Shown: in pieces, positions 9,441-64,000 of the stretch | How positions within the stretch are numbered: the stretch's first letter is position 1 | How the letters are laid out: the number at the start of each line of letters is the position of its first letter | From: Bacteroidota bacterium | GTDB lineage: Bacteria; Bacteroidota; Bacteroidia; Chitinophagales; JADIYW01 | Direction of reading: 5' to 3' | DNA: 64,000 bases | NCBI GenBank assembly: GCA_016705125.1 | Contig: JADIYW010000002.1 | Location: 147,981-211,980 of the forward strand | Program-made: the position numbers and the translations under genes | Notes under the pieces: generated by a model | Told to the model about the DNA's origin: nothing | Databases searched by the model: none | Seen by the model: the letters and a program-made list of their open reading frames with translations, nothing else

Positions 9441-9485
9441 TACAAATTTTACACATTATGGCAATCAAACTAAAAAATTTAACAA

Positions 9486-10130: not shown

Positions 10131-10207
10131 TAAAAATAACTTCTATTCTAATTTTTGTAAAAAATTAGGTATGTAATTTAAAGTACATTACCCTAATTTA
10201 GGTATTG

Positions 10208-10224: not shown

Positions 10225-10251
10225 TAAGATATTTGCACCTGAATTAAAATA

Positions 10252-12945: not shown

Positions 12946-12955
12946 TCAAAAAAAT

Positions 12956-13666: not shown

Positions 13667-13680
13667 TAACAAATATCATT

Positions 13681-14388: not shown

Positions 14389-14825
14389 TAATCCAAAATC
14401 AATTTTTCGGTTCTATAATACATCGTTTTTTCATTATACCATTCCACTCGAGCTGTAAAAGAACCTTTTCCAAATTTATTCTTTTCAATATTATAAACAC
14501 CTAAACTATCTGGAACAAAAGAAACTCGAATATCTTTACTTTGGTCATCATTTTTAAGAAACTCAATTTTACCGTTATTAAACTTTTGCACCAAATTAAT
14601 TGGCAGTTTAATTGAAATTATTGATTCATTTTGAGTGAAAATTTTCTGATTAGATGCATCATTCAACCTACGAGATGCATCAATCAATAACTGATATTTT
14701 GTTTCTTTTTCATAATAATTATTATCTATTAATTCATTATTCTGTTGAAATGCAATGTAAACCATGCCAAACATTATCAAAACGAATGCAATAATTACTA
14801 ATAATATTTTATGTCCCCAATTCAT
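14388..14825 (-). CDS. ccoH: FixH/CcoH-family protein
   Basis: 145 aa with a single N-terminal TM helix then a beta-rich domain. Its position directly after ccoG is typical of FixH. Confidence 0.7.
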   Translation of the reverse strand: MNWGHKILLVIIAFVLIMFGMVYIAFQQNNELIDNNYYEKETKYQLLIDASRRLNDASNQKIFTQNESIISIKLPINLVQKFNNGKIEFLKNDDQSKDIRVSFVPDSLGVYNIEKNKFGKGSFTARVEWYNEKTMYYRTEKLILD

Positions 14826-14837
14826 GTTTTTTTTTAT

Positions 14838-16241: not shown

Positions 16242-16244
16242 TGT

Positions 16245-17396: not shown

Positions 17397-17550
17397 CTAA
17401 TGGAAGATTTTCAATCCTCTTTAATTCATTTCTGTCAATACTATATATCCAAAGTGTGGCTATAATAAAAAATGCCACAAACATAACCAAGGAAATTAAT
17501 GGGTAAATACCCACCCCTGTAATTTGTTCCAAATACGTTGAAAATTTCAT
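17386..17550 (-). CDS. ccoQ: CcoQ/FixQ-like small membrane subunit
   Basis: 54-aa ORF not in the track: MKFSTYLEQITGVGIYPLISLVMFVAFFIIATLWIYSIDRNELKRIENLPLDDN. It has a single TM helix, lies between ccoNO and ccoP, and overlaps the ccoP start by 11 nt. Confidence 0.65.
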   Translation of the reverse strand: MKFSTYLEQITGVGIYPLISLVMFVAFFIIATLWIYSIDRNELKRIENLPLDDN

Positions 17551-17555
17551 AATAA

Positions 17556-34631: not shown

Positions 34632-37600
34632 TTATTTCAATACCACTACTTTTCCTACTACACTTTCCGTTTTGGATTTTTCTATTTTTAATAAATAAGT
34701 GCCTACAGCCAATTTACCGTTATTTAGAAAAGAAAAATCATTGATTCCATTATCTATAGCTTGTGTAAAAGTGTTGATTAACTTTCCATCGATTCCATAA
34801 AAATAAATATTTGCCTCAAATGGGTTGTTTAATTTGGAAATCAATTGCCATCCCCGTAATTCCAAACCACCATTTTGAATATTATTTACTGCGGAAAGGG
34901 TATAATCAACCGTTTGCAAACCAACATATACTAATGAATCATTTGTGGTGCGATACCACAATTTATAATACATCAATTTATCCAATCGATCGCTAACTGA
35001 ATCAATAGCACTATAGTTAGTATTTACTCCATTAATATTAGTAGCCAAAACACTATCGAATGGAATGTAATTAATATCATCCAAGGAATAAGTAGTTATG
35101 TATTTTACCACCTGGTTTTCTTTGGCAGAGGTCCAAGATAAAACAGATTGGTTTGAAGTATTTTTAACCGCATCAAAAGCAATTATTTGGGTGGAATCCA
35201 ATAATGCAATATCTATTTTGTTGCCTACAATATAATACTCACCAAAATCGCTGGTTTCAAACTCTACAAAATAACCATCCAAATAAGGTATTATTTCTAC
35301 CTCATTCTCATTCAATAAAAGATAATCCGAGAATGCATTATTGGTCAAATCCAAATCTGTATTCAATCCATTATATTTTAACACAACCAAATCACCGGGT
35401 CTATTTATGCCCTTATCTGAGTTATTTAGGGCAAAATATTCGTCGTTTTTAAAAAATAATCTGACCTTATAATTTCCAGTTAATTCATTTTCAGGCCAAA
35501 CGAAAAATCTACGTGGCAATAATCTCCTATTTTTAAAAATGCTTATTTCATTTGTTTCATTCGTTAATAAACCCATTTCTAAAGTACCCAATTGCTGCCC
35601 ATCATTATAAAAGGAACCAATTAATTGTCCATTTTTTCTATAATCAACCCAGCCCTCGCTATTGGAAACTACCGAAACGAAGGTTGAATCTTTTTCTACT
35701 ATCGAATCCAAAAATTCAGTAATAAATAAATCATCAATTGCCATTCCTTCTCTTGTCTCTGCTATATCACTTTTAAATCTAAGTCTTATCATATATTTAG
35801 ACTTATCAGTAATTCCGTTTAAATTAATTTTTTGGCTTACCACCTGCCAAGGAAGGCTATCCAAATCCCAAACTGCACTGTCTTGAATGTTTTCGTACCA
35901 ATTATACCCTGAACCTATAGCACCCAATCTGCCCCAAGTATTGCCATCTAAAGAAGATTCCGCCACTACGTAATCATAAAGACCTTGTCCGATTTCACCA
36001 GTTTCTATATTTTGGTAGGTATTAAAATTGATAATTGGTTGTGTTAAAGCAGAGAAATTATAACAACCTAAGTAAAGCGTTGTTTCCTCATTATTTTTAT
36101 ATTTCTCTCTCAAATTGGTTACCCAAGCCTTATTCCCTTGACCACTCAAATAAATTTTATTCTTATTTGGTATGCCCCACTCCCATTTGGTTTCACCTCC
36201 TGCATCTGAAATTAGATTACCATTATTGGATTCAAAATTTTCGTAATAAGGAAAATTTGAAACGGAATTCAATACATTTACTTCGTACAAAATAGTATCA
36301 TTAAATGCGGCTAAATCTCCAGGATTACTTGTCCAAACTTTTATTTTGTAAATACCTGGCAGACTCAAATCGGCATTTTGGGAAAAAGTGAATGCAAAAG
36401 TATCTTGAGGCAATAGGGTTTGAGTAAATACCTGACTTACTATAGGACCATCATTTATTGAATATTTTAATGCAAAATTTCCATTAGAATAAATATCATT
36501 ATTTTTTCCCTTTAAGCTAATTATATAATTGGTGCCACCGCCACAAATAAAACGGTTATAACTTATTCCTTCAATTCCAATATCTCTTCCGGCATTATAC
36601 AATTTTATATCATCAATGGAATAACCACCAGTTTGATTTGTAAAAAGCGCCTTTTTACTTGTATTGAATGAAAACCTTATCTGACTAGAAGCGCTAAAAT
36701 TAGAAGCGCTATCAGTAATTAGCATTTTTGAAATATTTAATCCCTGAAATGATTTAAATAATGCCTTAGGACCCTTATTGGCAAAAATATCAAATACTTT
36801 TATCCAGTTATCTGTTTCTTTTCCTCTGACATAAATAAAATCTAATGCTGTAAGTTCATTGTGGCTTAAAGCTGAAAAATCGAGATAAATTAGCGAATCA
36901 GCATAATTACTTAAATTCAAATTTAATATCAAATTATTTTCAGTTGGCACAACAGCCAAAGAATTATCAAAAGTAGCTCCCTTTTTTCCACTACTTGCAA
37001 AAAAATCGCTCTCGCCAACTCTGAACCTGCCCCCAAACTTATCGGTTGTATAATCCCATTCATCATTATCCAAAACCCTAAATGCATTATCCGTTATTCC
37101 ACATTTGGGCATATCTTCGAATCCTTCAAAATAGGGCAAGACGGCTGGATTATGCGCTAATTGGTATAAAACGCCTTTAAGGGTATCATTATTTTTATTC
37201 CCATCTGAAGTTAAATTAGTAGTTAAAGTATATGGATAATTTCCAATTGCCGACAAATTAGATGTACCAACAAATTGAACATCTTTTGTACTATCAGGAG
37301 CAATAGAATCCAAAATAGAAGCATTAAAGTTAGCTCCATTAATATTTAAATTAACGCCAATGTTTGCCACTTTTGTATTGCCGAAATTTTTAATTCTAGC
37401 CGTAAAATTAGTAGTAGCTGTTAAGGCTGTTGATGTATTCAGTCGGCCGCCAAATGGCGCAATTAATCCTACAACGCCTACATCATTTGGCACAGGACAA
37501 ATGCCAGGGTTTGGAGTTCCAAATATAGCATCAGCCCGCGGACTTTCTTTTCCATTTGTAACGGAAATAATGGAAAACAGGCTAGTAATGCCATTTTGCA

Positions 37601-39887
37601 AATTACTCACCCTATAAAAATTGGTGTCTGTTGTTCCAACTTGAACATAGCCCGTATCCTTATACATCAATATTTTAAATGTGGCATTTGGTTCGTCTTG
37701 CCAACTCAAATTAACAGTTCTATCACATGAAGTGGCAGTCAATCCAGTAGGTAATTTTACCACTGCAAATGACTGAATCGTCATAGTGGTGCCATCACTT
37801 ATTCTTATTTTAGCAGTTTCTGTAATTGTTGGATCAATTGGCCAGCTCAAATAACTTTGGGTTGGTGGAATATTAGTAGCCAAAACAGACCAATTCGCTC
37901 CATCGTCTTTTGAATATTCAATGGTTAAATTCCCAGTGCCTACCGCCTCGAACCTAATATACAAACTTGACCCAAGAGCATTAAAAGCTACTCTTTCATC
38001 AGGCATAGGATTCGTTATTTCAATATTGCTTGCCTCCACCCACTTTACTAATGCATACTCTTGTGGCCCAAAAGGAATTGATTTTCCTTTAATAATTATA
38101 GAATAATTTCCCGCAATTGGATTATCAATCGTTATTTGTTCAATATTATTTAGTGAATCACGACCGCGAACAGCTATATCATCATAATTTTTTCCCAAAA
38201 CCCAAGGCAAAACCGTTTGACCATTAGGATCCAAAATCTCCAAATCCAAATCATTCACCAATATTTTTGTTGCTGGAAGTGTAGTTGCTGGATCATTCCA
38301 AGCAATCATTACCTTAAGTGTCTTTGCGCCACTTGGAACACTTAAACCAACAATATTAGTTTGCCCATTATTGATTGTTCCCAATTCATAATCATTGGAA
38401 ACCAAGGCTTTTAATGCTTTATTTGCATTTACTCTTCCAAATCCATGACGATAATCTGGACCAGAAAAGCCCAAATCGAAGGCTGTATTGCACAATAATG
38501 CTTTAATTAAACTAGATTTTGGATAGGCTCCTGCGTGATCTTTTTTATACTGTTCCTGCATTAAACCAACAATCCCTGCAATCATTGGAGATGCAAAGGA
38601 AGAACCAAAATATTTGGTAAAACTATTATACCTTCTTAATCCGAATACATTATATCCAAGTGCCACTATTTCTGGCTTCAACCTGCCATCATAAGTTGGC
38701 CCCACCGAACTAGTGATATGCACATCAACAGCATCTACTAATCCGACATCAATAATATTTTTTGCCCCCTGAAAGCCAGGTACAACACTTCCGCCTGTGC
38801 CACAACCAGTAAATGAATTTCCTACCGAAAAAATATGCGTTACATACTCATTATCTTTTGCTATTTTGTCTAATTCACTTGTTTCGGTTACATATAATCC
38901 AGGTGGTTCGGAGCAATTATATGGTACGGAAAAAATACCCAAATAATAAGAGTGATTAGTTACGCTTAATTGACTATTTACTATTCCTGCCCTTAGTTCT
39001 GACAAAATATCTCCTCTAAAATCCCATGAATAAAGCATTGATTTAGGTGCCATTCCTTTACTGTATTCACTAAATATTCCGCCACCATTAATCATTCCTG
39101 CTACACCTGTAGCATGTGTATTGGTTGCCAAATCGGAATCTAACTTATCATTATTGAATATTCGTTGTTCAAAATCTAAATGCGGCCCAACAGTAGATTC
39201 ATCCCATTGTCCAATATTTATACCCTGCCCCAATAATCCAAAACCACTTGGTCCTTTATATTGAACAGCATTAACCCTATTTTGACCAATTCCACTGCCT
39301 AATAATGGCGTTGGGTAATTTAATTTGGGAGAAATATACCGAACAAAAGGCATTAAAGCCAATTCCTCTACTTGTTCTTTGCTAATAAAAACACTAAACT
39401 GTTTAAAATCAGCTTTAAATCCATCTAATTCAATTCCTTTTGAAGCTAGATATTGGGTTATTTCATTTTCGGTCAAATCTCCAATAAAACTCACCAAGAC
39501 CTTTTCCTTTTCCTGATTATTTATGGCAAATATACTCGTACTATTTTCAGGTTTTAAAAAAGTGTTTATCTTAGATTGATAAGCTAACCGACCAATTTTG
39601 AAGCTATTATTTGGTAGTAATTGTTTAAAAAAATCATCTGTACTACTTACCAAAAAAATACCATCGCCAAGGTAGGCTTCTTTATTTAATTCAAGCGGAA
39701 ATTGAATATTTAAATCTGCTGTTTTAATTGCAAAATAAGTTTTGCCTTTAAAGGAATATAAATCTGCATCACTTACTGCACTGGATCTAAACGAAGCATC
39801 GTTAAATTCCAAAAAATCTACCCTATCTTGAGCATTTATTTTAAAAAACCCAGCAAAAATTACAAGTACAAGTAAAAATGATTTCAT
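34632..39887 (-). CDS. giant S8 (subtilisin-like) serine peptidase with T9SS C-terminal sorting domain
   Basis: 1751 aa with a signal peptide, catalytic-triad contexts GQWDES (Asp), THATGVAGM (His) and GSSFASPMIAGIVGL (Ser), a long beta-rich extension and a CTD-like tail (GTYLLKIEK...GKVVVLK). Confidence 0.85.
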   Translation of the reverse strand: MKSFLLVLVIFAGFFKINAQDRVDFLEFNDASFRSSAVSDADLYSFKGKTYFAIKTADLNIQFPLELNKEAYLGDGIFLVSSTDDFFKQLLPNNSFKIGRLAYQSKINTFLKPENSTSIFAINNQEKEKVLVSFIGDLTENEITQYLASKGIELDGFKADFKQFSVFISKEQVEELALMPFVRYISPKLNYPTPLLGSGIGQNRVNAVQYKGPSGFGLLGQGINIGQWDESTVGPHLDFEQRIFNNDKLDSDLATNTHATGVAGMINGGGIFSEYSKGMAPKSMLYSWDFRGDILSELRAGIVNSQLSVTNHSYYLGIFSVPYNCSEPPGLYVTETSELDKIAKDNEYVTHIFSVGNSFTGCGTGGSVVPGFQGAKNIIDVGLVDAVDVHITSSVGPTYDGRLKPEIVALGYNVFGLRRYNSFTKYFGSSFASPMIAGIVGLMQEQYKKDHAGAYPKSSLIKALLCNTAFDLGFSGPDYRHGFGRVNANKALKALVSNDYELGTINNGQTNIVGLSVPSGAKTLKVMIAWNDPATTLPATKILVNDLDLEILDPNGQTVLPWVLGKNYDDIAVRGRDSLNNIEQITIDNPIAGNYSIIIKGKSIPFGPQEYALVKWVEASNIEITNPMPDERVAFNALGSSLYIRFEAVGTGNLTIEYSKDDGANWSVLATNIPPTQSYLSWPIDPTITETAKIRISDGTTMTIQSFAVVKLPTGLTATSCDRTVNLSWQDEPNATFKILMYKDTGYVQVGTTDTNFYRVSNLQNGITSLFSIISVTNGKESPRADAIFGTPNPGICPVPNDVGVVGLIAPFGGRLNTSTALTATTNFTARIKNFGNTKVANIGVNLNINGANFNASILDSIAPDSTKDVQFVGTSNLSAIGNYPYTLTTNLTSDGNKNNDTLKGVLYQLAHNPAVLPYFEGFEDMPKCGITDNAFRVLDNDEWDYTTDKFGGRFRVGESDFFASSGKKGATFDNSLAVVPTENNLILNLNLSNYADSLIYLDFSALSHNELTALDFIYVRGKETDNWIKVFDIFANKGPKALFKSFQGLNISKMLITDSASNFSASSQIRFSFNTSKKALFTNQTGGYSIDDIKLYNAGRDIGIEGISYNRFICGGGTNYIISLKGKNNDIYSNGNFALKYSINDGPIVSQVFTQTLLPQDTFAFTFSQNADLSLPGIYKIKVWTSNPGDLAAFNDTILYEVNVLNSVSNFPYYENFESNNGNLISDAGGETKWEWGIPNKNKIYLSGQGNKAWVTNLREKYKNNEETTLYLGCYNFSALTQPIINFNTYQNIETGEIGQGLYDYVVAESSLDGNTWGRLGAIGSGYNWYENIQDSAVWDLDSLPWQVVSQKINLNGITDKSKYMIRLRFKSDIAETREGMAIDDLFITEFLDSIVEKDSTFVSVVSNSEGWVDYRKNGQLIGSFYNDGQQLGTLEMGLLTNETNEISIFKNRRLLPRRFFVWPENELTGNYKVRLFFKNDEYFALNNSDKGINRPGDLVVLKYNGLNTDLDLTNNAFSDYLLLNENEVEIIPYLDGYFVEFETSDFGEYYIVGNKIDIALLDSTQIIAFDAVKNTSNQSVLSWTSAKENQVVKYITTYSLDDINYIPFDSVLATNINGVNTNYSAIDSVSDRLDKLMYYKLWYRTTNDSLVYVGLQTVDYTLSAVNNIQNGGLELRGWQLISKLNNPFEANIYFYGIDGKLINTFTQAIDNGINDFSFLNNGKLAVGTYLLKIEKSKTESVVGKVVVLK

Positions 39888-48997: not shown

Positions 48998-50405
48998 TTA
49001 TTTAATCAATTTTTTATTTAAGGTAATAAATTTATCAGCAGCCTCTATTTCAAAGGCCATTTCTAGTAGTTTTCGCTCCTCTCCTAGCATTGATGCAAAC
49101 TGAACGCCAATAGGCAATCCGTTTTTACTTATTCCTAAAGGTAAAGAAATAGCGGGTGCTCCAGTGATATTTTGCGTTGTTGTAAAATTTACGTAACTAT
49201 TCAACTTCATTATTACATCGATGGTATCTTCCTCGGTACCAAAATGACCAATCAAAGGTGCTGGGTGCGATAGCGTAGGACTAAGCAATAAATCATATTT
49301 TTCGAATAGTTTATTATAGTCATGTGTATGATTTTTTAAATTGCGAATGCTGCTTGCCGCACGAAAGGAAATAAGTGGAAAAAAGCCGCCTAATTGCTTG
49401 GTAAACTTTGCAGTTTTGAAATGATTAAATTTTAATCCATTGATTGCATACTCTGAAATCATCGTTGCAAAGGATAAAAAAGACCAATACACCATAAAAT
49501 CTCTTGTGATTTTATGTTCAAATGGATTGTTTATATATTCCACTTTATGACCAAATGATTCGCATAATTTGCCCGTTTCTAAGACAGCATTTGTAACATC
49601 ATTATCACTCTCAATACCTGTTGAAGATTTGGTAAACATCCCAATTCTTACTCTTTTTTTGTTGGCATTTTCCACCAATCCAATTGGCAAAAGACTAGAG
49701 TTATAATGTTGCTTTTCTAGTCCAGAAATAAAACTTGCGCTATCACGCACCGTTCTACTCACTATCCCATCTTGCGCAATATCTATTGGCACTAATTGCG
49801 ATGCGGATATAATATTTCTTCCACGTGAAGGCTTTAAGCCAACCAAACCACAACATGCAGCTGGGATCCTTATGGAACCGCCGCCGTCAGAAGCATGGGC
49901 GAAAGGTACCACGCCTGCAGCAACTAATGCCGCTGCGCCAGCTGATGAACCACCTGTTGAATGATCTAAATTCCAAGGATTTCTGGTTTCACCGTGTTGT
50001 AATGTTTCGCCACAAGGCAATAAACCAAATTCAGAAGTACTGCTTTTGCCAAGGATTATACTGCCCGTTATAGCTAAAAACTGGTCAACAATTTTGTCAT
50101 TTTTTTTGGCTTCTACTATTTTATAAGCACTCGAACCCTTGAGGGTCGGCATACCTTTTACATCATTTAAGTCTCTTTATAAAAGTAGGCACACCTGCAA
50201 ATATTCCCGTTTGCTTTGTTTTCGAATTTTCCTTAGCTGCGGGAAAATCATCATATACAATTGCATTTATTATTGGATCAATATTTTTTGCCCTTTCAAT
50301 AGCACATTCCACAGCCTCTTGTGCAGAAAATTCTTTCTTTTGAATCTTTTCTGCAATAGCTGTAGCGTCCAAATCTCCTAAAATACCAATACCAAATGTG
50401 TCCAT
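48998..50405 (-). pseudogene. amidase-signature family amidase, split by a 1-nt insertion as assembled
   Basis: The amidase signature GGSSAGAAALVAAGVVPFAHASDGGGSIRIPAACCGLVGLKPSRGR is in ORF 48998-50152; the N-terminal 80 aa is in ORF 50163-50405. Removing one base near 50174 restores GVPTFIKDLNDVKGMPTLKGS, with the conserved KD. Confidence 0.8.
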
Positions 50406-50412
50406 TTTTTTT
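50361..50412. repeat. direct repeat copy 1 (amidase 5-prime end, about 51 bp)
   Basis: TGTAGCGTCCAAATCTCCTAAAATACCAATACC[A]AA[T]GTGTC[C]ATTTTTTT matches 52837-52888 with 3 mismatches. Confidence 0.85.
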
Positions 50413-52836: not shown

Positions 52837-52888
52837 GTGTAGCGTCCAAATCTCCTAAAATACCAATACCGAAAGTGTCTATTTTTTT
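52837..52888. repeat. direct repeat copy 2 (orphan copy of the amidase 5-prime end)
   Basis: On the minus strand it encodes (GTG)KKIDTFGIGILGDLDAT, identical to the amidase N-terminus except I/M, then diverges. It differs from copy 1 at 3 positions, all third codon positions. Confidence 0.85.
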
Positions 52889-54652: not shown

Positions 54653-55704
54653 CTAATAAATGAATCTACTTTTTAATTGCTGGTTCAACCATCTTCCAAC
54701 TGGAATTTCGACAAAAAAAGTAATGCATGTAGCCATTAAAATTACTATAGGTAAGGCAACCAAACTTGCCTGCCAAAGGTTGAAACTACAATGTTTTTCC
54801 AAATAAGGAATAATCAAATCGATACTGAAAAATTGGTGAATAAGATATAAAGCAAACGATATTTTGCCAAGGAATAGAGTGATATCATTTACAATAAAAT
54901 TCAATTTATTGTTTACAAAAAGCAAAAACAAAACAAAATAGAACACAAGCATTCCCAAATATTGATCCCACGAAATAAAGGGCTGCCATCTATCGGTATT
55001 ATCGAGCAATAAAAGTTGAATTACAAAACCGAAAAGCAGGAACACATAATTGGAAATTATTTTTTTTTTTCATTTCCGTTTTTTATTTGATAAAAAAATA
55101 TGCCAGCTAAGAACAATGGCAAATGGTTAAATAAAGGGAAAAAATATTTTATGTTTTGAAATAGATTTGGATAATTTATTGGCAAAATAATTTCATAGCA
55201 CAGTAAAACAAACATTGACAAAAATGCGACAATACTGAAATATTTAATTAACCTCGCTTTAAAAACGAGTAACATCAAAAAGTAAAAAAGAAGTTCAATA
55301 ATCATCGTCCAATATGGGCCATCGAGGTCGGGAATTTTGAAATAATATTGCAGCATGGTCATATTTGGAAGGTATTGTGCAAAACTTATTTGATCTATTG
55401 TAATCACATTATATGCCATTTTTAAAATTATTTGCCCAATAAAAGTAATGGTTACACAAGTCCAATAGGTTGGAAAAAGTCTTGTAAACCGATTAATAAC
55501 AAACTCCCTACCTGAAGAAACCTTGTTTAGTGTCATAAAAATGACAAAACCACTGATGATGAAAAACAAATCGACACCAGTAATGCCTAAATTAAAACCC
55601 AAGTTGGCTTCAGGTTTTTCCATTGTATAATGAAAAAAAATCACCAACATGGCAGCTAAGCCGCGCAATGCATCTAGTTCTTTGTATCTAAATGATTTAT
55701 CCAA
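54653..55704 (-). pseudogene. acyltransferase-3 family membrane O-acyltransferase, split at an 11-nt homopolymer
   Basis: The N-terminal ORF (55057-55704) starts with the LDALRGLAAMLVIFFH signature. The C-terminal ORF (54653-55045) continues the TM helices. The frame changes at T11 (55060-55070; A11 = KKK on the coding strand). Confidence 0.75.
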
Positions 55705-55774
55705 TTATTTGTAAGCTATAAAGTAGCCTTGTAAACATAATAATATAAAAGCAAAAAATAAAATTCAAAAAAAT

Positions 55775-55960
55775 CTATTTCTTCAACCTATCCTTAAAAA
55801 TTTTCTCAAACTTGTCTATTTTGGGTTGTATCACCATTTGGCAATAGCCTTGGCTTTTGTTATTATTGAAATAGTCTTGGTGGTAATCTTCTGCTTTATA
55901 AAAAATAGTAAATGGTTCCAATTGGGTTACGATGGGCGAATCATATAACACTTTATTTAT
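55775..55960 (-). pseudogene. msrA: 3-prime remnant of peptide-methionine (S)-S-oxide reductase msrA
   Basis: The minus strand reads INKVLYDSPIVTQLEPFTIFYKAEDYHQDYFNNNKSQGYCQMVIQPKIDKFEKIFKDRLKK*. This is the conserved MsrA C-terminus (FYxAEDYHQ[DQ]Y). No start or catalytic GCFWG region is present, and it abuts the stop of the 55971 gene. Confidence 0.8.
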
Positions 55961-55970
55961 AATATTTTTT

Positions 55971-56603
55971 TTAGTGCGAATCTAAATCAACAAAATTATT
56001 TTCCGCTTGTAACCATTCTGCTTGTAAAAAAAATGGAATATTTTGTTGCTCACAAGCTCTTACAGTATGTCCAGTGCCACCGCCTTTTGGGTTTTCTAAA
56101 TTGATATAAAAAATAGCTGCTGTCGCGGGTAGAAATCCATTTGCCTTTGAGCCATAAACTTTCAATACATCACGTATCAAAAGTTTAGCATTTTCGGCAG
56201 CCCGATTTTTAATGCCTTTCATATAGCAATCTGTAAGGAATTTGTACGTTGGTGTTGCTTCTATGGTTTTGTCCACCAAAAACTGCAATTCATCCGTTGG
56301 TAAATCTTCCAAACTAATCATTCTTGCGTGTTGTATTAATCTCTTTTTTCCCATCCCTGTGGCTGGCAGTACATATTCTAATCTGGTAGGGTCTACTAGT
56401 GCTATACCTTTTGCAAATGCTTCATCGCTGCCAGTGGCATTGCCAGTTCTAAATATACACCTTGGATATTTTGTAGCTAATTGTTGTGCTAATGCAATTA
56501 ATTTTGGCGCATCGGATTCTGCCAATTTTCGCGTGCCTTCTAATAATATTATTTCATTAGAAGACGATGTAAGATTTACAGTAAATTCTTTAAAACTCAT
56601 CAT
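55971..56603 (-). CDS. SLOG-fold (DprA/YpsA-like Rossmannoid) protein, function unknown
   Basis: Start placed at ATG 56603, 4 nt after the AAA+ gene stop. The glycine-rich loop RTGNATGSDEAFAKG fits the GxAxGxDxxA type of DprA/YpsA, and there is a C-terminal GGTGHTVRACEQQNIPFF. By eye only. Confidence 0.5.
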   Translation of the reverse strand: MMSFKEFTVNLTSSSNEIILLEGTRKLAESDAPKLIALAQQLATKYPRCIFRTGNATGSDEAFAKGIALVDPTRLEYVLPATGMGKKRLIQHARMISLEDLPTDELQFLVDKTIEATPTYKFLTDCYMKGIKNRAAENAKLLIRDVLKVYGSKANGFLPATAAIFYINLENPKGGGTGHTVRACEQQNIPFFLQAEWLQAENNFVDLDSH

Positions 56604-56607
56604 AATT

Positions 56608-58281
56608 TTATTTTTTAAACCCAATACTATTCAGTAAATTTTTATTAAAATTTTCTTGTTTGCAAGTATCCTTGTACCAGTTTATATCTGGGTGTATGCC
56701 ATGTATAACTTGGTGCATTGTGGCTTTGCGTACTATGTTTTGTATTACACCACCGCTAAAATCATAGGCATTGGCAAGCTGTAGCAAATCTTCGTCATTC
56801 AATTGTTTTAATAATGAACGATATATTTTAAAACGGGTATCAATGGTTGGAATATTCAATTCCAATTTAAATAAAAAACGTCTATCAAAAGCATTATCAA
56901 TATTATCAATTAAGTTGGTTGTAGCCATCAAAATACCTTTAAAATCTTCCATTTCTTGTAGTATAATATTTTGAATTTCATTCTCTGTTTGTGCGGTATT
57001 TGATGAGCTGCTATCTTTACGTTTATTGATAACGCCATCTGCCTCATTAAAGAAAAGTATTGGAATATTATCTTGCGTTTTCATGTATTTATAATAGTCA
57101 TCAAAAAGTTTTTTTATTATTTTTTGCGATTCGCCAAACCACATACTTTTTAAATTACTTATATCTACTCTATAAATATTGCGTTGTGTTTGCTTTGCCA
57201 TCTGATAAACCGTTTCTGTTTTTCCTGTACCTGGTTTTCCATGAAGCAATATAGTTATACCACTTGGCATATTATTTTCTTTTAAACGATTGGATATGCA
57301 TTTAAATTTTTCTTCTTGTAGTAAGTTTTGTATAAAATCAATCGTTTTAAAATCATCGGTATTGTAAAAAAGAGATTTATCCTTAATTTCGTTTGCTAAA
57401 ATAATATTTTTCTCCCCTTTGTCTTTTGCGCTGCCAACGCAAATCATACTTGCATCATCACCAAACAAATACTCCGCACCATTTTTGGTGAGTTCAATGT
57501 CTACATCATTTCTCCAATTGTGTGGTTTTACTATTAATATTTCTAATTTGAAAAGCGTTGTTGTATTAAAGTCTCTTAAAATAGCTCTTTTTAAATCATG
57601 AAAATGGCTTCCCTTTTCCCAAAAAATTTCATCTAAAATAATATTTAAATTTATATCGTAATCTCCTTTATAATAACTAACCACAACATACAATAAAAAT
57701 AATTTAAGCTCAAAAGTTAGTTCTAACGATAATAATTTATTTGCAAAAAATATATGTTTATTGATTTCTAATAAATCAGTTATTTCTTCCCAAGCCTCAT
57801 CAAAACTTATTTCCTTTTCTACGTATTGATCCAACAATTTTTGGATTTCAGCAAGTAATGAAATATTAGAATCAATGGGTGCTTCTTTCTTTGGTTCGGT
57901 ATTATTTAAAATAGATTTTATAATGTCTTTTTTAAAAAGGTAGCTAAATTGTTCCCTTTTTAGTGTATGTCTATCATAGTTTAAGGCAATCAGTTTTTTC
58001 TGTAATAAAATACGTATTGATGGTTCGTGTTTAAGCAGTTCAATGGGAGTGCAATCTAAATGATAAGCTATATCTTTAATATCAAAACTACAACTATTTT
58101 CAAAGAACTTTGAAAACATAATGGCAAACATCAAAGCTTCTTCTGATGTGCAATTGTATTTATCTTTTACTGGTTTGCAAAGTTTTTTGATTTGCAAGGA
58201 ATCAAACGCTTCCAGTTTTTTATCTTTTGTTTGTTTAAATATTTCAATAATGGAGTGCAAAATAATGTTTTCTTTTTTCAT
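56608..58281 (-). CDS. AAA+ ATPase (classical AAA clade module) with a large uncharacterised N-terminal domain
   Basis: 557 aa with Walker A LLHGKPGTGKT, Walker B ILFFNEADG and second region of homology ATTNLIDNIDNAFDRRF. The first ~320 aa have no recognisable motif. Confidence 0.85.
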   Translation of the reverse strand: MKKENIILHSIIEIFKQTKDKKLEAFDSLQIKKLCKPVKDKYNCTSEEALMFAIMFSKFFENSCSFDIKDIAYHLDCTPIELLKHEPSIRILLQKKLIALNYDRHTLKREQFSYLFKKDIIKSILNNTEPKKEAPIDSNISLLAEIQKLLDQYVEKEISFDEAWEEITDLLEINKHIFFANKLLSLELTFELKLFLLYVVVSYYKGDYDINLNIILDEIFWEKGSHFHDLKRAILRDFNTTTLFKLEILIVKPHNWRNDVDIELTKNGAEYLFGDDASMICVGSAKDKGEKNIILANEIKDKSLFYNTDDFKTIDFIQNLLQEEKFKCISNRLKENNMPSGITILLHGKPGTGKTETVYQMAKQTQRNIYRVDISNLKSMWFGESQKIIKKLFDDYYKYMKTQDNIPILFFNEADGVINKRKDSSSSNTAQTENEIQNIILQEMEDFKGILMATTNLIDNIDNAFDRRFLFKLELNIPTIDTRFKIYRSLLKQLNDEDLLQLANAYDFSGGVIQNIVRKATMHQVIHGIHPDINWYKDTCKQENFNKNLLNSIGFKK

Positions 58282-58723
58282 AATGTATAGTGTTTTAGGA
58301 TTAAAAAATGCTTAAAATGTTAATGTTCATAATTAACAAGTAGAAAATAATCAAATGCTACGACAAAAAATGTCGTATATAATTAAATTAAAAAGACCTA
58401 TTGATCATTAGGTATTTTTAAACAGAATATAACTGTTTTGATATTGGTATCGCGACTTAATACAACTAATTCCCTTTGTTATAATGCAAAGATACAAAGC
58501 CAAACTGATAAAATCAAGTATACAAAATATTGACAATCAATCAATTGTGATTTTATAAAAAAAATAAAATCTGAAAACAACAAACTTTTAGTTTGCATAC
58601 TTTTTGAAGTAGCGTCGCCAACGCTTTTATAATGGCTCAATGCCAATTCTCTTGGGATGTTGTTGTTTTTTGTAAATTAAAAATTGAAAAAAAAGAAAAC
58701 AAAAATATCCTTTTTATAAAAAA

Positions 58724-60664
58724 TTAAACTGCTTTCGTTGTCCAGTGTTTCCAAATAATAACCATTGCCATAGTGTCTAATTGGCAATAATTAAGTAATT
58801 CTTGTTTTAATCTTTCTCTTCTGTTAGCATCTGTTTTGCCTTTGCCAAAGAGCATTTCCTGATAGGCACGCATGGCTCCGCTGCCTTCTTTCACGGTTTC
58901 ATAATTCTCAGCCGTTTCAAATTCTAATTCGTCCCAACGGTTTTTTAAGGTTTCGTACGGACTTAAAATATTTCCGTTTTCATCTTGCTTGAAATATTGT
59001 TTAAAGTAAGGAACATCGTGCAGGTATTTATTGAAATTCCAGGTTGCTGGTAAAGTCTTTTTAATAGACGTTCTGCCTTTCATGTATGGATGAAAATAAT
59101 GCTTTAGCGTGAGCGCATTCATATCAATTAATCTACCTAGTCTTGGATTCGCTTTTTTATCACTTTCTTTTGTAATATTAAACAACCAAGTTTTTAGTTT
59201 TTCATTTCTATAACCATTTACATAATTATCTGGATTTTCTAGTTGTTCTAAGATTTTTCTAAGTACAGTATTTTCATGAGTCGCCCACATTAATGGTGTT
59301 CCTGTTTCACCGATTTGTTTCATCAAGCTTTCTGCAAATCTAAAATTCGGGAAAGTCGTTTCTGTATTTATCCATTCTGAATGTATTGGAGCATCACCAA
59401 GCTTTTCGATGGCATGACAACTCCACTGAAACGCTATGGTTTCATAAGGTCGCATACCTTTGTGGTGCGGAATGGCGCATGTCAGCGTTTCAAAGTCTAT
59501 GAAATGCAAAGGATATTTCCAACCAGACAATTCATCGCTCAACTCTTCAGAAAAATATTCTGTTCCGTTTTTTGTGTTTTCATATTGTATAATTTGTCTT
59601 TCGTTTCTTGAACCAACTTCGCCTTTTGTCGTTACAAAATCTGTAATGTCGTAATCAAAAATGGATAATGCTTTTTCTGATTTTAGTTTGACATTAACCA
59701 ATGGTTCACTAGTTCCACCAATGGTGCCACCGTAATATAATTCTGAGATATGATTTTTTGTATATGCTCTTTTTCCTAAACATTGAAAGTAACCATCTTT
59801 GTTTTTGTCATCCGGATTTTTGAACTCACAGGCAAAACATTTTTTAGAAATTAAATCCTTAATTATTGGAGCTTCTTCTTTGTTTAAGTACCTAAGATAA
59901 AGTGCTGTTCTTTTTTTTATATCTTCCATCATCTTATCTACATCATCATTGACATTCAAAGTTTGCAGAATGCTCTTGTTATTTTCCCAAAGTTCTTTTT
60001 CCTTTCCTTGTTGAGTAAAAGTAACTTCAATGGAATTAAAATCACCTATTTTTATTCTATCCGTAATCTCAAACCAAGAAGCTAAATTTTCTATTTGTGT
60101 AGCATTAGATTTATTCGGCATTAATAAATTTGCTTCAACGGTAAAACTTGGAAATGATGTTTCATGCTCTTTTAAAAATTCGCTTAACACCAATTTTTGA
60201 TAAGCAACATCTTCAATGTATTCTTTTAATTTTTTCTTTTGAGTAGTGCTTTTATCTTCATCTTCCTCTACCGTTTCGTGCGATTTTGCTTTTACTTCTA
60301 ATATTTGAAAATGGTTGTTGGTTTTGATTAAAACATCAATTCTAATCAACATTTGCCCAGTAGAAATAGCCGGTTCAAACAAGATTATTTTCTCATTTTC
60401 AAAGAGTAATTTTTCTGTTTGTTCAATAGCTTGTTTTGAATTTCTATCTGATGTGATTTCTTTACACACATATCCATTTTCTCTAGCATATTGCTCATAC
60501 ATTACAGTAGCCATTTTACCAACTATGTAACCGCCTTCTGCTAATATTTGCAGGAATTCATTTTCTTCATTTGAATTAGGATATTTCGCTTTTTTATATA
60601 GCAGTTTCTGTGGACAATCAGAAGCTAATTTAAAGTCGGATTTGGAAAGTGTTGGATTAGCCAT
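58724..60664 (-). CDS. DUF2779-type protein: N-terminal PD-(D/E)xK (RecB/Cas4-like) nuclease plus C-terminal DEDD-like exonuclease fold
   Basis: 646 aa. The N-terminal LSKSDFKLASDCPQKLLYKK and RIDVLIK...ILEVKAKS give a D...E-x-K motif. There is a central Cys cluster (CFACEF...FQCLGK), then C-terminal HFIDFETL...IAFQWSCH and YCQLDT motifs. Confidence 0.7.
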   Translation of the reverse strand: MANPTLSKSDFKLASDCPQKLLYKKAKYPNSNEENEFLQILAEGGYIVGKMATVMYEQYARENGYVCKEITSDRNSKQAIEQTEKLLFENEKIILFEPAISTGQMLIRIDVLIKTNNHFQILEVKAKSHETVEEDEDKSTTQKKKLKEYIEDVAYQKLVLSEFLKEHETSFPSFTVEANLLMPNKSNATQIENLASWFEITDRIKIGDFNSIEVTFTQQGKEKELWENNKSILQTLNVNDDVDKMMEDIKKRTALYLRYLNKEEAPIIKDLISKKCFACEFKNPDDKNKDGYFQCLGKRAYTKNHISELYYGGTIGGTSEPLVNVKLKSEKALSIFDYDITDFVTTKGEVGSRNERQIIQYENTKNGTEYFSEELSDELSGWKYPLHFIDFETLTCAIPHHKGMRPYETIAFQWSCHAIEKLGDAPIHSEWINTETTFPNFRFAESLMKQIGETGTPLMWATHENTVLRKILEQLENPDNYVNGYRNEKLKTWLFNITKESDKKANPRLGRLIDMNALTLKHYFHPYMKGRTSIKKTLPATWNFNKYLHDVPYFKQYFKQDENGNILSPYETLKNRWDELEFETAENYETVKEGSGAMRAYQEMLFGKGKTDANRRERLKQELLNYCQLDTMAMVIIWKHWTTKAV

Positions 60665-61127
60665 TTTGTTGTTTTTGTTGTTGAGTTAAATAATATTTTT
60701 CTGCAGCGTTTAAATTTTCAATGCCACCTTTTAGATTTATTTTATCTAATATTTCATCGGTGTTGTAATGCAACAAATCTCCATAGGCTTGTATAAAAGC
60801 TTCATCTGTTACTGTTAAATTTTTTGAATTATTAAGCGCAGCTAAATAGGCAAATAAATTGTCGTTGTTATCATCTGCTTTAAAGGAATCTGCTTCTATG
60901 AGTTTGCTATTGGTAAGCAATGTTTGAAATGGAGCGATAATATAAATGCCAACTTCACATTCCTGTATTAATTCAATAATTGCGGAAGTAGCAGCATTTA
61001 AAAAAAGCAGTACAGCACCTTTGTCATCCAAAATAATTTTGTTGTAATGCTGCAAGGCAAGTTGCACATGAAACTCTCCGAGCTGTTTGCGTTTTGGATT
61101 ATTTAAGAATAGAATAAAATGGTGCAT
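60657..61127 (-). CDS. hypothetical protein, member of the mcrBC-DUF2779 operon
   Basis: 156-aa ORF, 8 nt after mcrC, overlapping the DUF2779 gene start by 8 nt. No motif recognised. Confidence 0.5.
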   Translation of the reverse strand: MHHFILFLNNPKRKQLGEFHVQLALQHYNKIILDDKGAVLLFLNAATSAIIELIQECEVGIYIIAPFQTLLTNSKLIEADSFKADDNNDNLFAYLAALNNSKNLTVTDEAFIQAYGDLLHYNTDEILDKINLKGGIENLNAAEKYYLTQQQKQQNG

Positions 61128-61135
61128 GTAATTTT

Positions 61136-62572
61136 TTATTTTTCAGTAGTTTGAATTTTAAATATCTCATCGAATTTTTTAAATAAATTAGCTTCTATGT
61201 TATTTACATTTTCGGATATTATTGGTAGGTTATAAGCATTAATTTTTATTGGCTTTTCTTTATTTTTATCAAAAAGATCTGTAATCTCAAAATTTGCTTC
61301 ATCTTTCATTTGTTCAGCACATTTAGGATAAAAAAGCATAAAATCTTTTACATCTTTTCTTATGGCGTAACTTGCCATTTGATACATGTCTAATTGCGAA
61401 ATTCCTTTCTTTTTGTTGTTTTTATCAAATGAATCTTGTTTTCTGATTTTATATTTTGTATCAATAATGTATTTAATATTTTTTACTTCACACTCTATAT
61501 CTGTTTTTAAACTAAAAACATTTTCTAAGTTTCCATTAATTACTGTAGTTGCTAATTTAATTTCACTATTTTGAGTAGTTAAATGTTTCTGGTTATTCTC
61601 AATTAAATAATTATCCAGCATTGTTGAGATAAAACCTTCAAATATTTTTTCCATTGGTAAAAGAAAACAAAAATTGTCTGAATTATAACTATCATTATTG
61701 AAGGTTTGCTGTTCCAATATCATTTTACACCAATAAAGAATTTCTTTGTATTCTGAAAATAAATCACTGATTTGTATGCGTTCTATTTCCTGTATGGTAC
61801 AAACACGATCTTCTACTTCATCCAGAATAAAAACGATATTATCGAGTTTTGAGATAGATGTATTTTTTGCTTTATGTTTCAAAACTCTAGTAACATATTT
61901 AATAACTTGATTTACTTTATTGTCATACACAAATGGCTCATATACACAGTCTATCTGGTGCCAGTTTCCGTTAGAAAGCCCATGATTTATATAAGCCGGA
62001 AAATTAATTCTACCTTTCGGCGATTGCAAAATTTCTTCCACTTCTTCGTAACGACTGAATGGTTTTTGGCTCACTGCATCTTCAATTAATGTGGCGATAT
62101 AATAAATCAAAAACTCTGGAAAATCTTCTATGGAAATATTATCTAAAGTAGTATTATTTACACGAGCAGGCAGCCAGTCACAATGTTTAAGCCAAAAGAA
62201 AATATGTTGCAACCAATTGTTTTTGTCTGTAGGTTGAATCTCTCCATTTTTTTTATAAAATATCTTTGGATATATTTCGATTATCTTTTCGCCATGTTGG
62301 ATGAACCCAATGTAATTATTTGGTTTTATTGACTTTCTGTCTAAAGAAACAAATCGTTGTTTAGATTTTTTGACATCACCAATTTCTTCCTCATCTTCAA
62401 CATTTTCTTCGGTTTCTTTGTTTATCTGATTATAAAAATTATTATCAGTTGGTTTTGAAATCAACGTATTCCAAACTGTTTCAAGTATAGTTTCTAATTC
62501 ATCTACATTACCTATTGTAATTGAGTCAATATTTTTGTGTTCAAATAATATTATGTGATTGCTTTCTGACAT
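61136..62572 (-). CDS. mcrC: McrC-like restriction endonuclease subunit
   Basis: 478 aa, immediately (2 nt) downstream of the McrB-like gene. The C-terminal nuclease core has IIDTKYK (the D-x-K of PD-(D/E)xK), as in McrC. Confidence 0.75.
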   Translation of the reverse strand: MSESNHIILFEHKNIDSITIGNVDELETILETVWNTLISKPTDNNFYNQINKETEENVEDEEEIGDVKKSKQRFVSLDRKSIKPNNYIGFIQHGEKIIEIYPKIFYKKNGEIQPTDKNNWLQHIFFWLKHCDWLPARVNNTTLDNISIEDFPEFLIYYIATLIEDAVSQKPFSRYEEVEEILQSPKGRINFPAYINHGLSNGNWHQIDCVYEPFVYDNKVNQVIKYVTRVLKHKAKNTSISKLDNIVFILDEVEDRVCTIQEIERIQISDLFSEYKEILYWCKMILEQQTFNNDSYNSDNFCFLLPMEKIFEGFISTMLDNYLIENNQKHLTTQNSEIKLATTVINGNLENVFSLKTDIECEVKNIKYIIDTKYKIRKQDSFDKNNKKKGISQLDMYQMASYAIRKDVKDFMLFYPKCAEQMKDEANFEITDLFDKNKEKPIKINAYNLPIISENVNNIEANLFKKFDEIFKIQTTEK

Positions 62573-62574
62573 TG

Positions 62575-64000
62575 TTAAGAATTAATTTGGTCTTCAGTTT
62601 TTGTTTCTTTAATATCACTTGATGTTGGTAACATTTTTCCAATAAACTCTTTAAATAAACCTTCTTTATCTTTAGGAATAACCTTGGTAACCAATTCCGT
62701 ATTGTTATTAAAATATTCCATCAATAAAGGAAAAACTTTGAGTTTCATTACTTTATCAGTATCCAAATCTTTCATAAAAAATGCATGTCCTATTTGGAAA
62801 TCAGCACTTTTGTTTCCTATTTTTTTATCTGTTATGTTTGTATTTATTGCTTTTAATAAATCAGCATCTTTAGGATTTAATCCATCAATATCGTATTTTG
62901 GTGGCATTGGTTCAAACTCAAATCTTCTTCTTAAAGCAATATCAATTAAGGCAATTGATTTATCAGCGGTGTTCATAGTGCCGATTAAATACAAGTTGGA
63001 AGGAACACCAAATGATTCGCCATTTGGTAAGCTAATAATCAATTCATTTTCTGCTCCAATTCTTTTGTCGTCTTCCAGCAAAGTAATTAGTTCTCCAAAT
63101 ACACGAGAAATATTTGCACGGTTGATTTCATCAATGATGAGTACATAATTCTTATCCAAATTATTGTAAGCCGTTTTACACATACGATAAAATATACCAT
63201 AGTTTTGTTTGAATGTTAGTTGAGCGTCATTAGCTATATTAGGTTTTAACCCAATTACAAAATCTTCATAAGTGTAGTTTTGATGAAAAGTTACAAATTC
63301 TATTTGGTTGGCATCTAGTGCAGTGTCATTGAAAGATAGTGTTTTATTGCCAGCAAATTCTTTATATTTTTCTACAATTTTTTCTCTATCTGTTTTTTCT
63401 TCATTGCTTGTAATCTTTTTATTGCTATTTGTATTTTCAATTATTTTAACAGCAAGTTCTATAGTATTGTACGTTTTACCAGTTCCTGGAGGACCGTATA
63501 GTATGGTGTTGAGTGCTTTTTTTAACTCAATTGAAATTATTTTTCCTTTTAAATTAACTGTATCTGAACTTAATTTACTAATATTATTTTCATATTCAAT
63601 TTTAACTTTATCACGTAATTGTATCCATTTTAATAAATCTGGTATAAAATCTTTATAATTTGGATTACTTATATCCATCAGTTTTATTATTATTAAATTC
63701 TTGTTTAAGCCATACTCTATCAATTTATCTTTGACTTCATTTGGATTTTTATGTCCGTTGCCAACATTCATTTTCCCATTTTCCAATAATGTAACTTGAT
63801 TCCCTTCCGAAATAAAATTATTGTCATCAACTGTATATTGTATTATGTGATTTTTCTTATCTCTAGGCTGTCTTCTTACCCAAATTTTATTTTCATTAGA
63901 ATCAAATTTAATTAAATATAGTATGTCTTCATTAGTTTTAAATGTGTAAATATTTTCTTGAATTTCAACAAGTATAAAATCCTTGATGTTAGTATTGAGC
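62575..64000 (-). CDS. mcrB: McrB-like AAA+ GTPase restriction subunit (5-prime end beyond the window)
   Basis: Walker A LYGPPGTGKT, Walker B LIIDEINRANISRVFGE and McrB signature GTMNTADKSIALIDIALRRRFEF. The frame upstream of the track start (TTG at 63786) stays open to position 64000, so the N-terminal DNA-binding region is truncated by the window edge. Confidence 0.85.
   Translation of the reverse strand, partial: LNTNIKDFILVEIQENIYTFKTNEDILYLIKFDSNENKIWVRRQPRDKKNHIIQYTVDDNNFISEGNQVTLLENGKMNVGNGHKNPNEVKDKLIEYGLNKNLIIIKLMDISNPNYKDFIPDLLKWIQLRDKVKIEYENNISKLSSDTVNLKGKIISIELKKALNTILYGPPGTGKTYNTIELAVKIIENTNSNKKITSNEEKTDREKIVEKYKEFAGNKTLSFNDTALDANQIEFVTFHQNYTYEDFVIGLKPNIANDAQLTFKQNYGIFYRMCKTAYNNLDKNYVLIIDEINRANISRVFGELITLLEDDKRIGAENELIISLPNGESFGVPSNLYLIGTMNTADKSIALIDIALRRRFEFEPMPPKYDIDGLNPKDADLLKAINTNITDKKIGNKSADFQIGHAFFMKDLDTDKVMKLKVFPLLMEYFNNNTELVTKVIPKDKEGLFKEFIGKMLPTSSDIKETKTEDQINS

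Follow-up and report, generated by a model that had tools for sequence, protein, structure and literature searches.

We analyzed a 64,000-nt stretch of DNA from a Bacteroidota bacterium (GenBank assembly GCA_016705125.1, contig JADIYW010000002.1, positions 147,981 to 211,980; hereafter the window), at one end of which the type IV restriction genes McrB and McrC are followed on the minus strand by two further genes, one for p156 (a protein of 156 aa) and one for a DUF2779 protein. The original prediction, made from the sequence alone, had read these four genes as one extended McrBC operon. Comparison with related loci indicates that p156 and DUF2779 are likely to belong to an ATPase cassette, in which McrBC is a facultative nested module. 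The conserved frame would consist of a Cdc48-type AAA+ ATPase of 557 aa (AAA557) and the DUF2779 dual nuclease, usually together with p156 and a DprA-like protein of 217 aa (p217), and its minimal form would be the four-gene cassette AAA–p156–DUF2779–p217 of L054 (L-numbers denote comparison loci, and WIN denotes the window locus). Nested between ATPase and nuclease, the frame appears to carry interchangeable nuclease modules, namely canonical McrBC, a fam8 and fam15 PD-(D/E)xK pair, or both, and occasionally an NT5C nucleotidase and small acidic proteins. We are inclined to regard the locus as a whole as a modular same-strand defence island, or superoperon, that reaches about 5 kb past the window edge.

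The open reading frame (ORF) listing agreed with the original prediction on four tightly packed minus-strand genes: McrB from 62575 to beyond 63999 (the window edge lies at 64000), McrC at 61136–62572, p156 at 60657–61127, and the 646-aa long form of DUF2779 at 58724–60664. McrB and McrC are separated by 2 nt and McrC and p156 by 8 nt, and p156 overlaps DUF2779 by 8 nt. All of the motifs that had been quoted for these genes (GPPGTGKT, MNTADKS, IIDTKYK, RIDVL...ILEVKAK, FIDFET, and YCQLDT) were present in the translations. The array of four genes was nevertheless drawn too short. Downstream of DUF2779 on the same strand, after a gap of 442 nt, it had omitted the two neighbors that proved most telling, AAA557 (56608–58281, minus strand) and p217 (55971–56624, minus strand), which overlaps the AAA557 stop by 17 nt. 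Upstream of McrB, at least four further same-strand genes lie beyond the window edge, as read in L114 and L115. In these two loci the array opens with a gene of a 247-aa family (fam14_247), a lipoprotein-like ORF, and a gene for fam8, an acidic protein of about 155 aa. L115 has a small acidic fam22 protein in addition, and L114 a 383-aa nuclease-type fam15 protein; all of these genes are on the McrB strand. The lipoprotein-like ORF (about 165 aa, with a signal peptide ending in LGGC; L114 6201–6698, L115 7064–7573) stands amid an otherwise cytoplasmic nuclease and ATPase array.

The assignment of DUF2779 and p156 to the ATPase is based on gene order in a close clade of 11 distinct loci, delimited as loci whose long-form DUF2779 has at least 60% identity, together with loci of this island type that carry a short form. 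WIN, together with L114, reads fam14_247–165aa–fam8–fam15–McrB–McrC–p156–DUF2779–AAA557–p217, and L115, which shares the chromosomal locus of the window, reads fam14_247–fam22–169aa–fam8–McrB–McrC–p154–DUF2779(short)–AAA557. McrBC was also found in L118 (AAA–McrB–McrC–107aa–PDDEXK_3–p157–DUF2779–p217), L119 (AAA–fam8–p217–NT5C–McrB–McrC–109aa–DUF2779(short)), L058 (AAA–p144–NT5C–fam22–fam8–McrB–McrC–103aa–DUF2779), and L051 (AAA(pseudogene)–p217(pseudogene)–NT5C–McrB'–McrC'–DUF2779), so that 6 of the 11 loci carry it, in two non-orthologous versions. The loci without it are L054 (AAA–p153–DUF2779(short)–p217), L001 (AAA–fam14_247–p217–fam8–fam15–DUF2779), L049 (AAA–fam14_247–fam22–fam8–fam15–DUF2779), L052 (p217 on the opposite strand, then AAA–213aa–220aa–DUF2779), and the short contigs L062 and L063 (fam8–fam15–DUF2779). 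The ATPase was found wherever the contig reached far enough: AAA557 is intact in L001, L049, L052, L054, L058, L115, L118, and L119 and a pseudogene in L051. The fam8–fam15 pair occurs in five close-clade loci, one of which (WIN and L114) has McrBC too, while the other four lack McrBC. This alternative cargo also appears to be a nuclease, with matches of fam15 to PDDEXK_4 and to PDC-S26, a PADLOC candidate.

Two pairs of loci that share their chromosomal surroundings illustrate the nesting directly. L054 and L118 have a common downstream chromosome (Usp–PIN–melibiase), and L118 has a McrB–McrC–107aa–PDDEXK_3 block between the ATPase and p156. L051 and L119 have common flanks (Lon ... Fic–ADH–NTP-transferase); L119 has McrBC of the window type, and L051 carries a non-orthologous McrBC at the same position, with a McrB that is 31% identical to that of the window and a McrC that could not be aligned with the window McrC (E value 0.58). 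In L051, the sole locus with this McrBC version, AAA557 and p217 are broken into ORF fragments (1947–3921). DUF2779 orthologs with 70–87% identity were found without McrBC in L001, L049, L052, L062, and L063, and in L054 a p156 homolog of 51% identity stands in the McrBC-free cassette; in L118 and L115, the p156 homolog is directly upstream of DUF2779. Across the same loci, long-form DUF2779 is 65–87% identical and AAA557 46–67%. Pairwise identities of McrC among WIN, L118, L119, and L058 (47–55%) resembled those of AAA557 in the same comparisons (47–58%). Because McrC and AAA557 thus co-diverge, the McrBC lineage of the window has probably been a long-term resident of the island, with losses in L054, L001, and L049.

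We then examined the linkage in both directions. Starting from DUF2779, we collected relatives from 48 reference-genome, 53 metagenome, and 20 viral-contig loci and searched each ORF in them with a profile for each gene of the island. Of these, 114 loci were distant (at most about 50% identity), and 88 of the 114 had a flank of at least 4 kb on one side. None of AAA557, p156, and p217 was found near any of the 114 distant DUF2779 loci. McrBC lay within 10 kb of DUF2779 in two of them, which represent a single lineage (L128/L137). The array in L137, a contig from IMG/VR with high GC content, reads HATPase_c_3–AAA_13–SbcD–SbcC–DUF2779–Mrr (HARE-HTH)–McrB–McrC–ADP-ribosylglycohydrolase–REase-ARP (46–18243). 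A spacing of 16 nt separates SbcC from the start of its DUF2779 gene, whose product is 30% identical to that of the window, and this closeness suggests a possible connection with the processing of DNA ends. Starting from McrC, relatives of the window protein at 87, 55, 53, and 49% identity were all located in this island type in the contexts that could be read, and DUF2779 was near McrBC in all five distinct loci with window-type McrC at 47% identity or more (WIN, L115, L118, L119, and L058), although this is a small sample. A 39%-identical McrC relative in Saprospiraceae (L121), the only relative sampled near 40%, is a stand-alone McrBC.

These results qualify the original prediction in both directions. 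The neighborhood of McrBC and DUF2779 is more than a chance juxtaposition, since it recurs in L115, L118, L119, L058, and L051 and in the unrelated lineage L128/L137, and McrBC of the window subclade is accompanied by DUF2779 in all five loci of the small sample. An obligate linkage was not found either, and the view of p156 and DUF2779 as extensions of McrBC fails on L054 and the other McrBC-free loci and on the single lineage among 114 distant ones; the constant partner of DUF2779 in the close clade is AAA557, which the prediction had overlooked.

The DUF2779 protein itself matched PF11074 (E value 7.3e-26; 91.3 bits against a gathering cut-off of 23.3), and its predicted dual-nuclease architecture was confirmed at the level of residues in an alignment of 21 sequences with 23–87% identity, in which residues were assigned to Cas4 and DEDD roles following PMC13621843. 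Four cysteines (C17, C276, C279, and C295) that form the Cas4-type set were invariant, as were D110 and E123 of the PD-(D/E)xK site (D...ExK) and Q156, while K125 was nearly so. The DEDDy set (D390, E392, D514, Y626, and D630) was invariant as well. This conservation supports the interpretation of DUF2779 as a putative N-terminal Cas4-like PD-(D/E)xK nuclease fused to a C-terminal DEDDy 3'-5' exonuclease domain with an RNase H fold. The short-form homologs of the island matched RNase_H_2 (3.6e-5) and, below the cut-off, Cas_Cas4 (0.0022); a profile search of PDB sequences returned no relative of DUF2779 with a solved structure. The family has previously been predicted to be a fusion of a Cas4-like nuclease and a DEDD exonuclease (PMC3985635; PMC13621843), and it is quasi-essential, as MMSYN1_0389, in JCVI-syn3.0, the minimal Mycoplasma (PMC13621843). 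Neither of these published analyses describes genomic partners for the family. It is widespread (1886 hits), and in streamlined freshwater Actinobacteria and in Pseudanabaena it occurs with no island genes nearby.

McrB and McrC had been identified as a type IV pair, and the profile matches bear this out. McrB matched AAA_5 (7.8e-20) and, partially, the NCBIfam McrB model (1.1e-40, not reaching the equivalog cut-off of 637 bits), and its translation contains a Walker A motif (GPPGTGKT), LIIDEINR, and the NxxD-type signature MNTADKS. McrC matched PF10117 over profile positions 1–318 of 318 (9.1e-63) and contains the PD-(D/E)xK core TD...IIDTKYK. The N-terminal domain of McrB had been described as cut off by the window edge, but very little of it is in fact missing. 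The frame is open to the edge, and the start codon is located 19 codons further on (MATIKTFFKKINESLNTIK|LNTNIK...), as read from L114, a public contig of a metagenome-assembled genome (GCA_016719345.1) that is 99.2% identical to the window. The full-length protein has 493 aa, with an N-terminal region of about 175 aa, of which about 155 lie within the window. The ORF listing had given McrB as a 403-aa ORF starting at TTG (62575–63786), a mechanical start that differs from the gene start. The L114 copies of both genes are broken, with a 1-nt insertion that frameshifts McrB and a split of McrC near its 3' end; those of the window are intact. No Pfam domain matched the McrB N-terminal region, and McrB relatives carry ScoMcrA_N (weak), DUF8425, or DUF8426 in its place. 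By these domains and motifs, the McrBC module of the window is canonical and complete and belongs to the NxxD branch; it is an ordinary type IV system and would by itself be a self-sufficient modification-dependent endonuclease. We also considered whether p156 might be a third subunit of McrBC, as in the three-gene systems LlaI and BsuMI, and rejected this since p156 occurs without McrBC and McrB has its own N-terminal domain.

As for the partners of DUF2779, the C-terminal part of AAA557 is an AAA+ module of the classical clade (PF00004, 5.4e-24) that can be likened to Cdc48, p97, and Msp1; the best PDB matches, to Cdc48/p97/AFG2, reached 5e-25 and covered the AAA module only. The 335 N-terminal residues that precede the module had no Pfam match, and AAA557 had no relative in IMG/VR. 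Among defence models, the best matches were PADLOC IetA (2e-26) and NCBIfam IteA (2.2e-23; 83 bits against a cut-off of 510), confined to residues 330–529. Membership in the IetAS system was rejected given this domain-level similarity below the cut-off and the lack of an IetS protease gene in the island.

The description of p156 as unrecognizable held up: no family matched above the threshold, and a structure model with a Foldseek search gave nothing significant. The AlphaFold2 model (pLDDT, the confidence score of the model, 66) predicts an N-terminal ferredoxin-like fold (beta-alpha-beta-beta-alpha-beta) and a C-terminal helical part, which contains an invariant D-x2-LDK...L...EK motif and a weak match to DUF6576 (E value 0.0016, below the cut-off). 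Against the PDB, this model yielded generic ferredoxin-fold matches, the best with an E value of 6e-3 (PstA/PII-like) and none at 0.001 or below. The family is very rare and has no annotated relatives, with seven relatives among 1.84 billion representatives and two near-identical ones in a word-index search. Three of the four relatives with a readable context adjoin AAA557 and/or DUF2779; of the remaining relatives, one is in a phage-like contig and a solitary one (L059) lies beside a DDE transposase at a contig end. The phage-like contig (L055–L057, metagenome) carries a lone p156 homolog of 42% identity among many small genes, a 993-aa metallophosphatase, and PKD-domain proteins, and a 135-aa ORF near this homolog has a weak match to DUF6576, as does the p156 C-terminus.

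All six members of the p217 family matched phrog_768, annotated as a DprA-like DNA recombination-mediator protein (best E value 7.3e-15, residues 30–199), and the family alignment contained the invariant motifs LLEGxR, FRxGNAxGxDxxF, and GGTGHT. By homology, p217 is a member of the DprA-like (SLOG-type Rossmannoid) family, which does not imply a DprA function. Neither Pfam nor the profile search of PDB sequences gave a match for p217, and its AlphaFold2 single-sequence model (pLDDT 40) was unusable. No tblastn match to p156 or p217 was found in 50,697 phage genomes. Pfam likewise had no match for the 103-aa family, fam8, fam14, or fam22. When the small island families, including p156, fam8, fam22, and the 103-aa family, were compared with one another by hhalign, no pair reached a probability of 50, and we abandoned the notion of a distant paralogy between p156 and fam8.

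Comparison of WIN with L115 showed how the island changes between near-identical strains. DNA homology of 92–98% is broken at three places, namely the DUF2779 ORF, the McrB N-terminal domain, and p217. At the first of these, the break extends from 6 nt before the start to 34 nt after the stop, and the 646-aa DUF2779 of the window is replaced in L115 (11906–13372) by a 488-aa short form that is 26% identical. At the second, the N-terminal region cannot be aligned at the DNA level with that of the L115 McrB, which is 92% identical, indicating that the domain was swapped between strains. In addition, fam15 is present in L114 and absent from L115. An ORF-for-ORF replacement of this kind is typically seen where defence genes diversify, and in a housekeeping gene it would be unusual. 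The L114 contig ends within the island, just after p156, which suggests that the assembly broke at the variable DUF2779 gene. Among related genomes, the island occupies different chromosomal sites. In L001 it adjoins two GmrSD copies and a UDG-like gene, in L049 DUF2779 is directly followed downstream by a type III CRISPR-Cas effector locus (CARF Card1, Cas10, RAMPs, and Csx19; 8842–16015), and the neighbors at other loci include PIN, Fic, WYL, and HipA-linked genes.

Two repeats are associated with the array of the window. Self-blastn and alignment revealed repeat A (364 bp; 58230–58589, minus strand), which covers the upstream region of AAA557 and its first 52 nt. A second copy with 84% identity lies beyond the window edge, just upstream of the 247-aa gene (L114 4890–5249, L115 5487–5846), and in this copy at the head of the array a remnant AAA557 start codon and 17 codons are still readable. 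Invariant in both copies are TATCTTTG (58494–58487), the palindrome ACCTAaTGATCAaTAGGT (about 58412–58395), and the hairpin TACGACATTTTTTGTCGTA (58377–58359), the last of which was flagged as terminator-like in a terminator scan, although the promoter and terminator scan showed no enrichment overall. Repeat A may act as a shared promoter and leader, or it may be a regulatory RNA. Because the other loci read AAA–247–...–DUF2779 and a 5' remnant of AAA557 persists at the array head, the gene order of the window lineage, with AAA557–p217 after DUF2779, is probably a permutation that arose through duplication and subsequent deletion. The other repeat, B' (153 bp; 55774–55925, minus strand), follows shortly after p217 and duplicates the msrAB 3' end with 92% identity. 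Together with the upstream msrAB 3' end (copy B, L114 4172–4324), it brackets about 12.5 kb; from L115 it is missing along with p217.

With these observations, the explanations that compete with an ATPase cassette can be weighed. The original prediction amounts to a single extended type IV machine, in which p156 and DUF2779 would be dedicated subunits that process DNA cut by McrC. The spacing of the four genes speaks for such a machine, as do the 8-nt overlap of McrC and DUF2779 in L051, the position of all readable McrC relatives at 47% identity or more within 0–1.5 kb upstream of a DUF2779 gene, the co-divergence of McrC with AAA557, and the SbcCD–DUF2779–Mrr–McrBC array of an unrelated DUF2779 lineage (30% identity; L128/L137). 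Dedicated subunits, however, are difficult to reconcile with L054, where p156 and DUF2779 stand together without McrBC, with the five further loci that have close DUF2779 orthologs and no McrBC, and with L058, where p156 is three genes away from McrBC and beside AAA557. Genes of the 103–109-aa family and PDDEXK_3 genes intervene between McrC and DUF2779 in L118, L119, and L058, the McrC of L051 is unalignable with that of the window, the distant DUF2779 loci yielded one McrBC lineage, and the 39%-identical McrC relative L121 belongs to a stand-alone pair. We consider an extended McrBC machine improbable.

A different possibility is that the genes merely lie together: DUF2779 would be a housekeeping nuclease for DNA-end processing or repair, located beside a hotspot that gathers unrelated defence cassettes (McrBC, fam15, and AAA557), with no functional unit beyond McrBC. 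The wide distribution of DUF2779, including freshwater Actinobacteria and Pseudanabaena without island genes, its quasi-essentiality in JCVI-syn3.0, its stronger conservation relative to AAA557 in the long form, and the highly variable gene content between AAA557 and DUF2779 would all fit. A fixed housekeeping anchor would stay put, however, and both the chromosomal site and the flanks of the AAA...DUF2779 block differ from locus to locus. Moreover, the DUF2779 ORF is precisely swapped for a 26%-identical short form between strains of 97% identity, the very rare p156 tracks both DUF2779 and AAA557, and AAA557 and p217 decay together in L051, all of which make pure co-location unlikely. The genes could also share a vehicle rather than a pathway, if the block of about 12.5 kb is a present or former integrative element at the msrAB 3' end. 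The direct repeats that bracket the block and the different chromosomal sites of the island in related genomes would agree with this, and mobile genes do occur at related loci, with an IS200-type Y1 transposase adjacent in L118 and a DDE transposase beside the solitary p156 homolog in L059. Genes for an integrase or a recombinase are absent from the block itself in the window as well as in L114 and L115, no tRNA is nearby, AAA557 is without a relative in IMG/VR, and the second repeat copy, which is missing in L115 along with p217, may mark only a local indel. Co-mobilization as the explanation of the linkage therefore seems very unlikely to us.

Under the ATPase-cassette reading, AAA557, p156, DUF2779, and p217 would form a separate ATPase–nuclease unit, probably with a defensive role, and we lean slightly towards the cassette being an anti-phage system in its own right. 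Its DUF2779 nuclease would degrade DNA ends in both directions, with the Cas4-like domain acting 5'-3' and the DEDDy domain 3'-5', and where the modules are co-resident, it may finish off fragments made by McrBC or fam15. The combination of McrBC and DUF2779 would then be an opportunistic synergy with no obligate complex, which resembles the action of RecBCD or AddAB after restriction; a direct functional hand-off from McrBC to DUF2779 we regard as doubtful. More speculatively, AAA557–p156–DUF2779–p217 could be an undescribed anti-phage system in which a Cdc48-type, unfoldase-like ATPase is combined with an adaptor of ferredoxin fold, a nuclease effector of dual polarity, and a DprA/SLOG-type sensor of single-stranded DNA or nucleotides. 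In such a system the frame would dock endonuclease modules, with McrBC or fam8/fam15 cutting modified invader DNA first and DUF2779 then destroying the ends, and the exchange of long and short nuclease forms would perhaps evade phage inhibitors.

Several observations count against this interpretation of the cassette. AAA557, p156, and p217 match no characterized system, and the roles proposed for them are guesses. The presence of DUF2779 in streamlined genomes and its quasi-essentiality in the minimal Mycoplasma argue for a housekeeping nuclease rather than a defensive one. The McrBC subclade of the window was seen only in this island and co-diverges with AAA557, which fits a tighter coupling than that of facultative cargo. 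The close-clade sample comprises 11 loci, mostly from metagenomes of related Bacteroidota, so that shared ancestry could mimic functional linkage. Finally, a sigma-70 promoter scan, which does not cover promoters of the Bacteroidota type, gave 46 promoter-like sites against 48.5 expected and hence no enrichment.

Elsewhere in the window, an acyltransferase of the Acyl_transf_3 type (54653–55704, minus strand) is split into ORFs of 215 aa and 130 aa that lie in different frames, and the same gene is intact, with 351 aa, in the 97.5%-identical strain L115; the window copy thus has an apparent frameshift, which reflects either a pseudogene or an assembly error. A direct repeat of 51 bp with 94% identity (52838–52888 and 50361–50411) occurs 2.4 kb apart, downstream of a DUF4139-type gene, and the middle of the window holds an ORF of 1751 aa (34632–39887, minus strand). 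No tRNA or Rfam family was found across the whole window.

What is new here is that in one Bacteroidota clade three proteins, namely a Cdc48-type ATPase, a small protein of a rare family, and a DprA-like protein, are the fixed partners of the widespread and uncharacterized DUF2779, and that the AAA557/DUF2779 frame repeatedly hosts type IV restriction or PD-(D/E)xK modules. DUF2779 thereby gains its first testable biological context, and the L054 type offers a compact four-gene candidate system. The natural presence and absence pairs (L054 and L118, L051 and L119, and the window and L115) bear on the question of whether restriction modules and the nuclease cooperate. If they do, a bacterial restriction cut would be coupled to a dedicated exonucleolytic clearance that is independent of RecBCD and AddAB.

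Among known systems, the pairing of a RecB/Cas4-type nuclease with an exonuclease of opposite polarity on DNA ends has parallels in RecBCD and AddAB and in the trimming by Cas4 or DEDDh nucleases during CRISPR adaptation. DUF2779 appears to differ from both, as it has no helicase domain and no adjacent Cas1 or Cas2, and only L049 neighbors a type III CRISPR-Cas locus. Compared with canonical McrBC of the E. coli K-12 type (NxxD branch), the window module has the same AAA_5 GTPase and full-length PF10117 McrC encoded 2 nt apart, but its N-terminal region of about 175 aa has no match to a known DNA-binding domain, and a larger conserved array surrounds the module. For AAA557, the best defence match was IetA/IteA of IetAS (Gao et al. 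2020), although the likeness is confined to the generic AAA module and the 335 N-terminal residues are unrelated. DUF2779 shares with the Mycoplasma protein DUF2779/UU173 (MMSYN1_0389) the two-domain architecture of a Cas4-like and a DEDD(y) domain, with conserved D/E/K and DEDDy residues. MMSYN1_0389 has two Cas4-type cysteines, whereas the window protein has all four; the latter scored 25.4 bits with the NCBIfam UU173 model, far below its cut-off of 225, and in its clade DUF2779 is embedded in a defence island and has two interchangeable forms, a long one of about 650 aa and a short one of about 485 aa. Menshen (NsnABC) was rejected as a relative, given a partial DUF2779–NsnC match of 74 residues at an E value of 1e-4 and no match to NsnA or NsnB.

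The closest comparison in organization is with CoCoNuT, a branch of McrBC-related systems that is defined by an NxD GTPase signature, a coiled-coil, and tandem nucleases (PMC11090510). The window McrB falls outside this branch, with N-T-A-D (NxxD) in place of NxD. No coiled-coil, HEPN, CARF, or RtcR family was among the domain matches, although no separate search for coiled coils was made, and the framing genes here are AAA557 and DUF2779. In type II CoCoNuT superoperons, two conserved components of a McrBC-related locus enclose ancillary defence genes that run in the same direction (Bell et al. 2024, PMC11090510), and it is this nested, same-direction organization that the island of the window resembles, as an organizational parallel.

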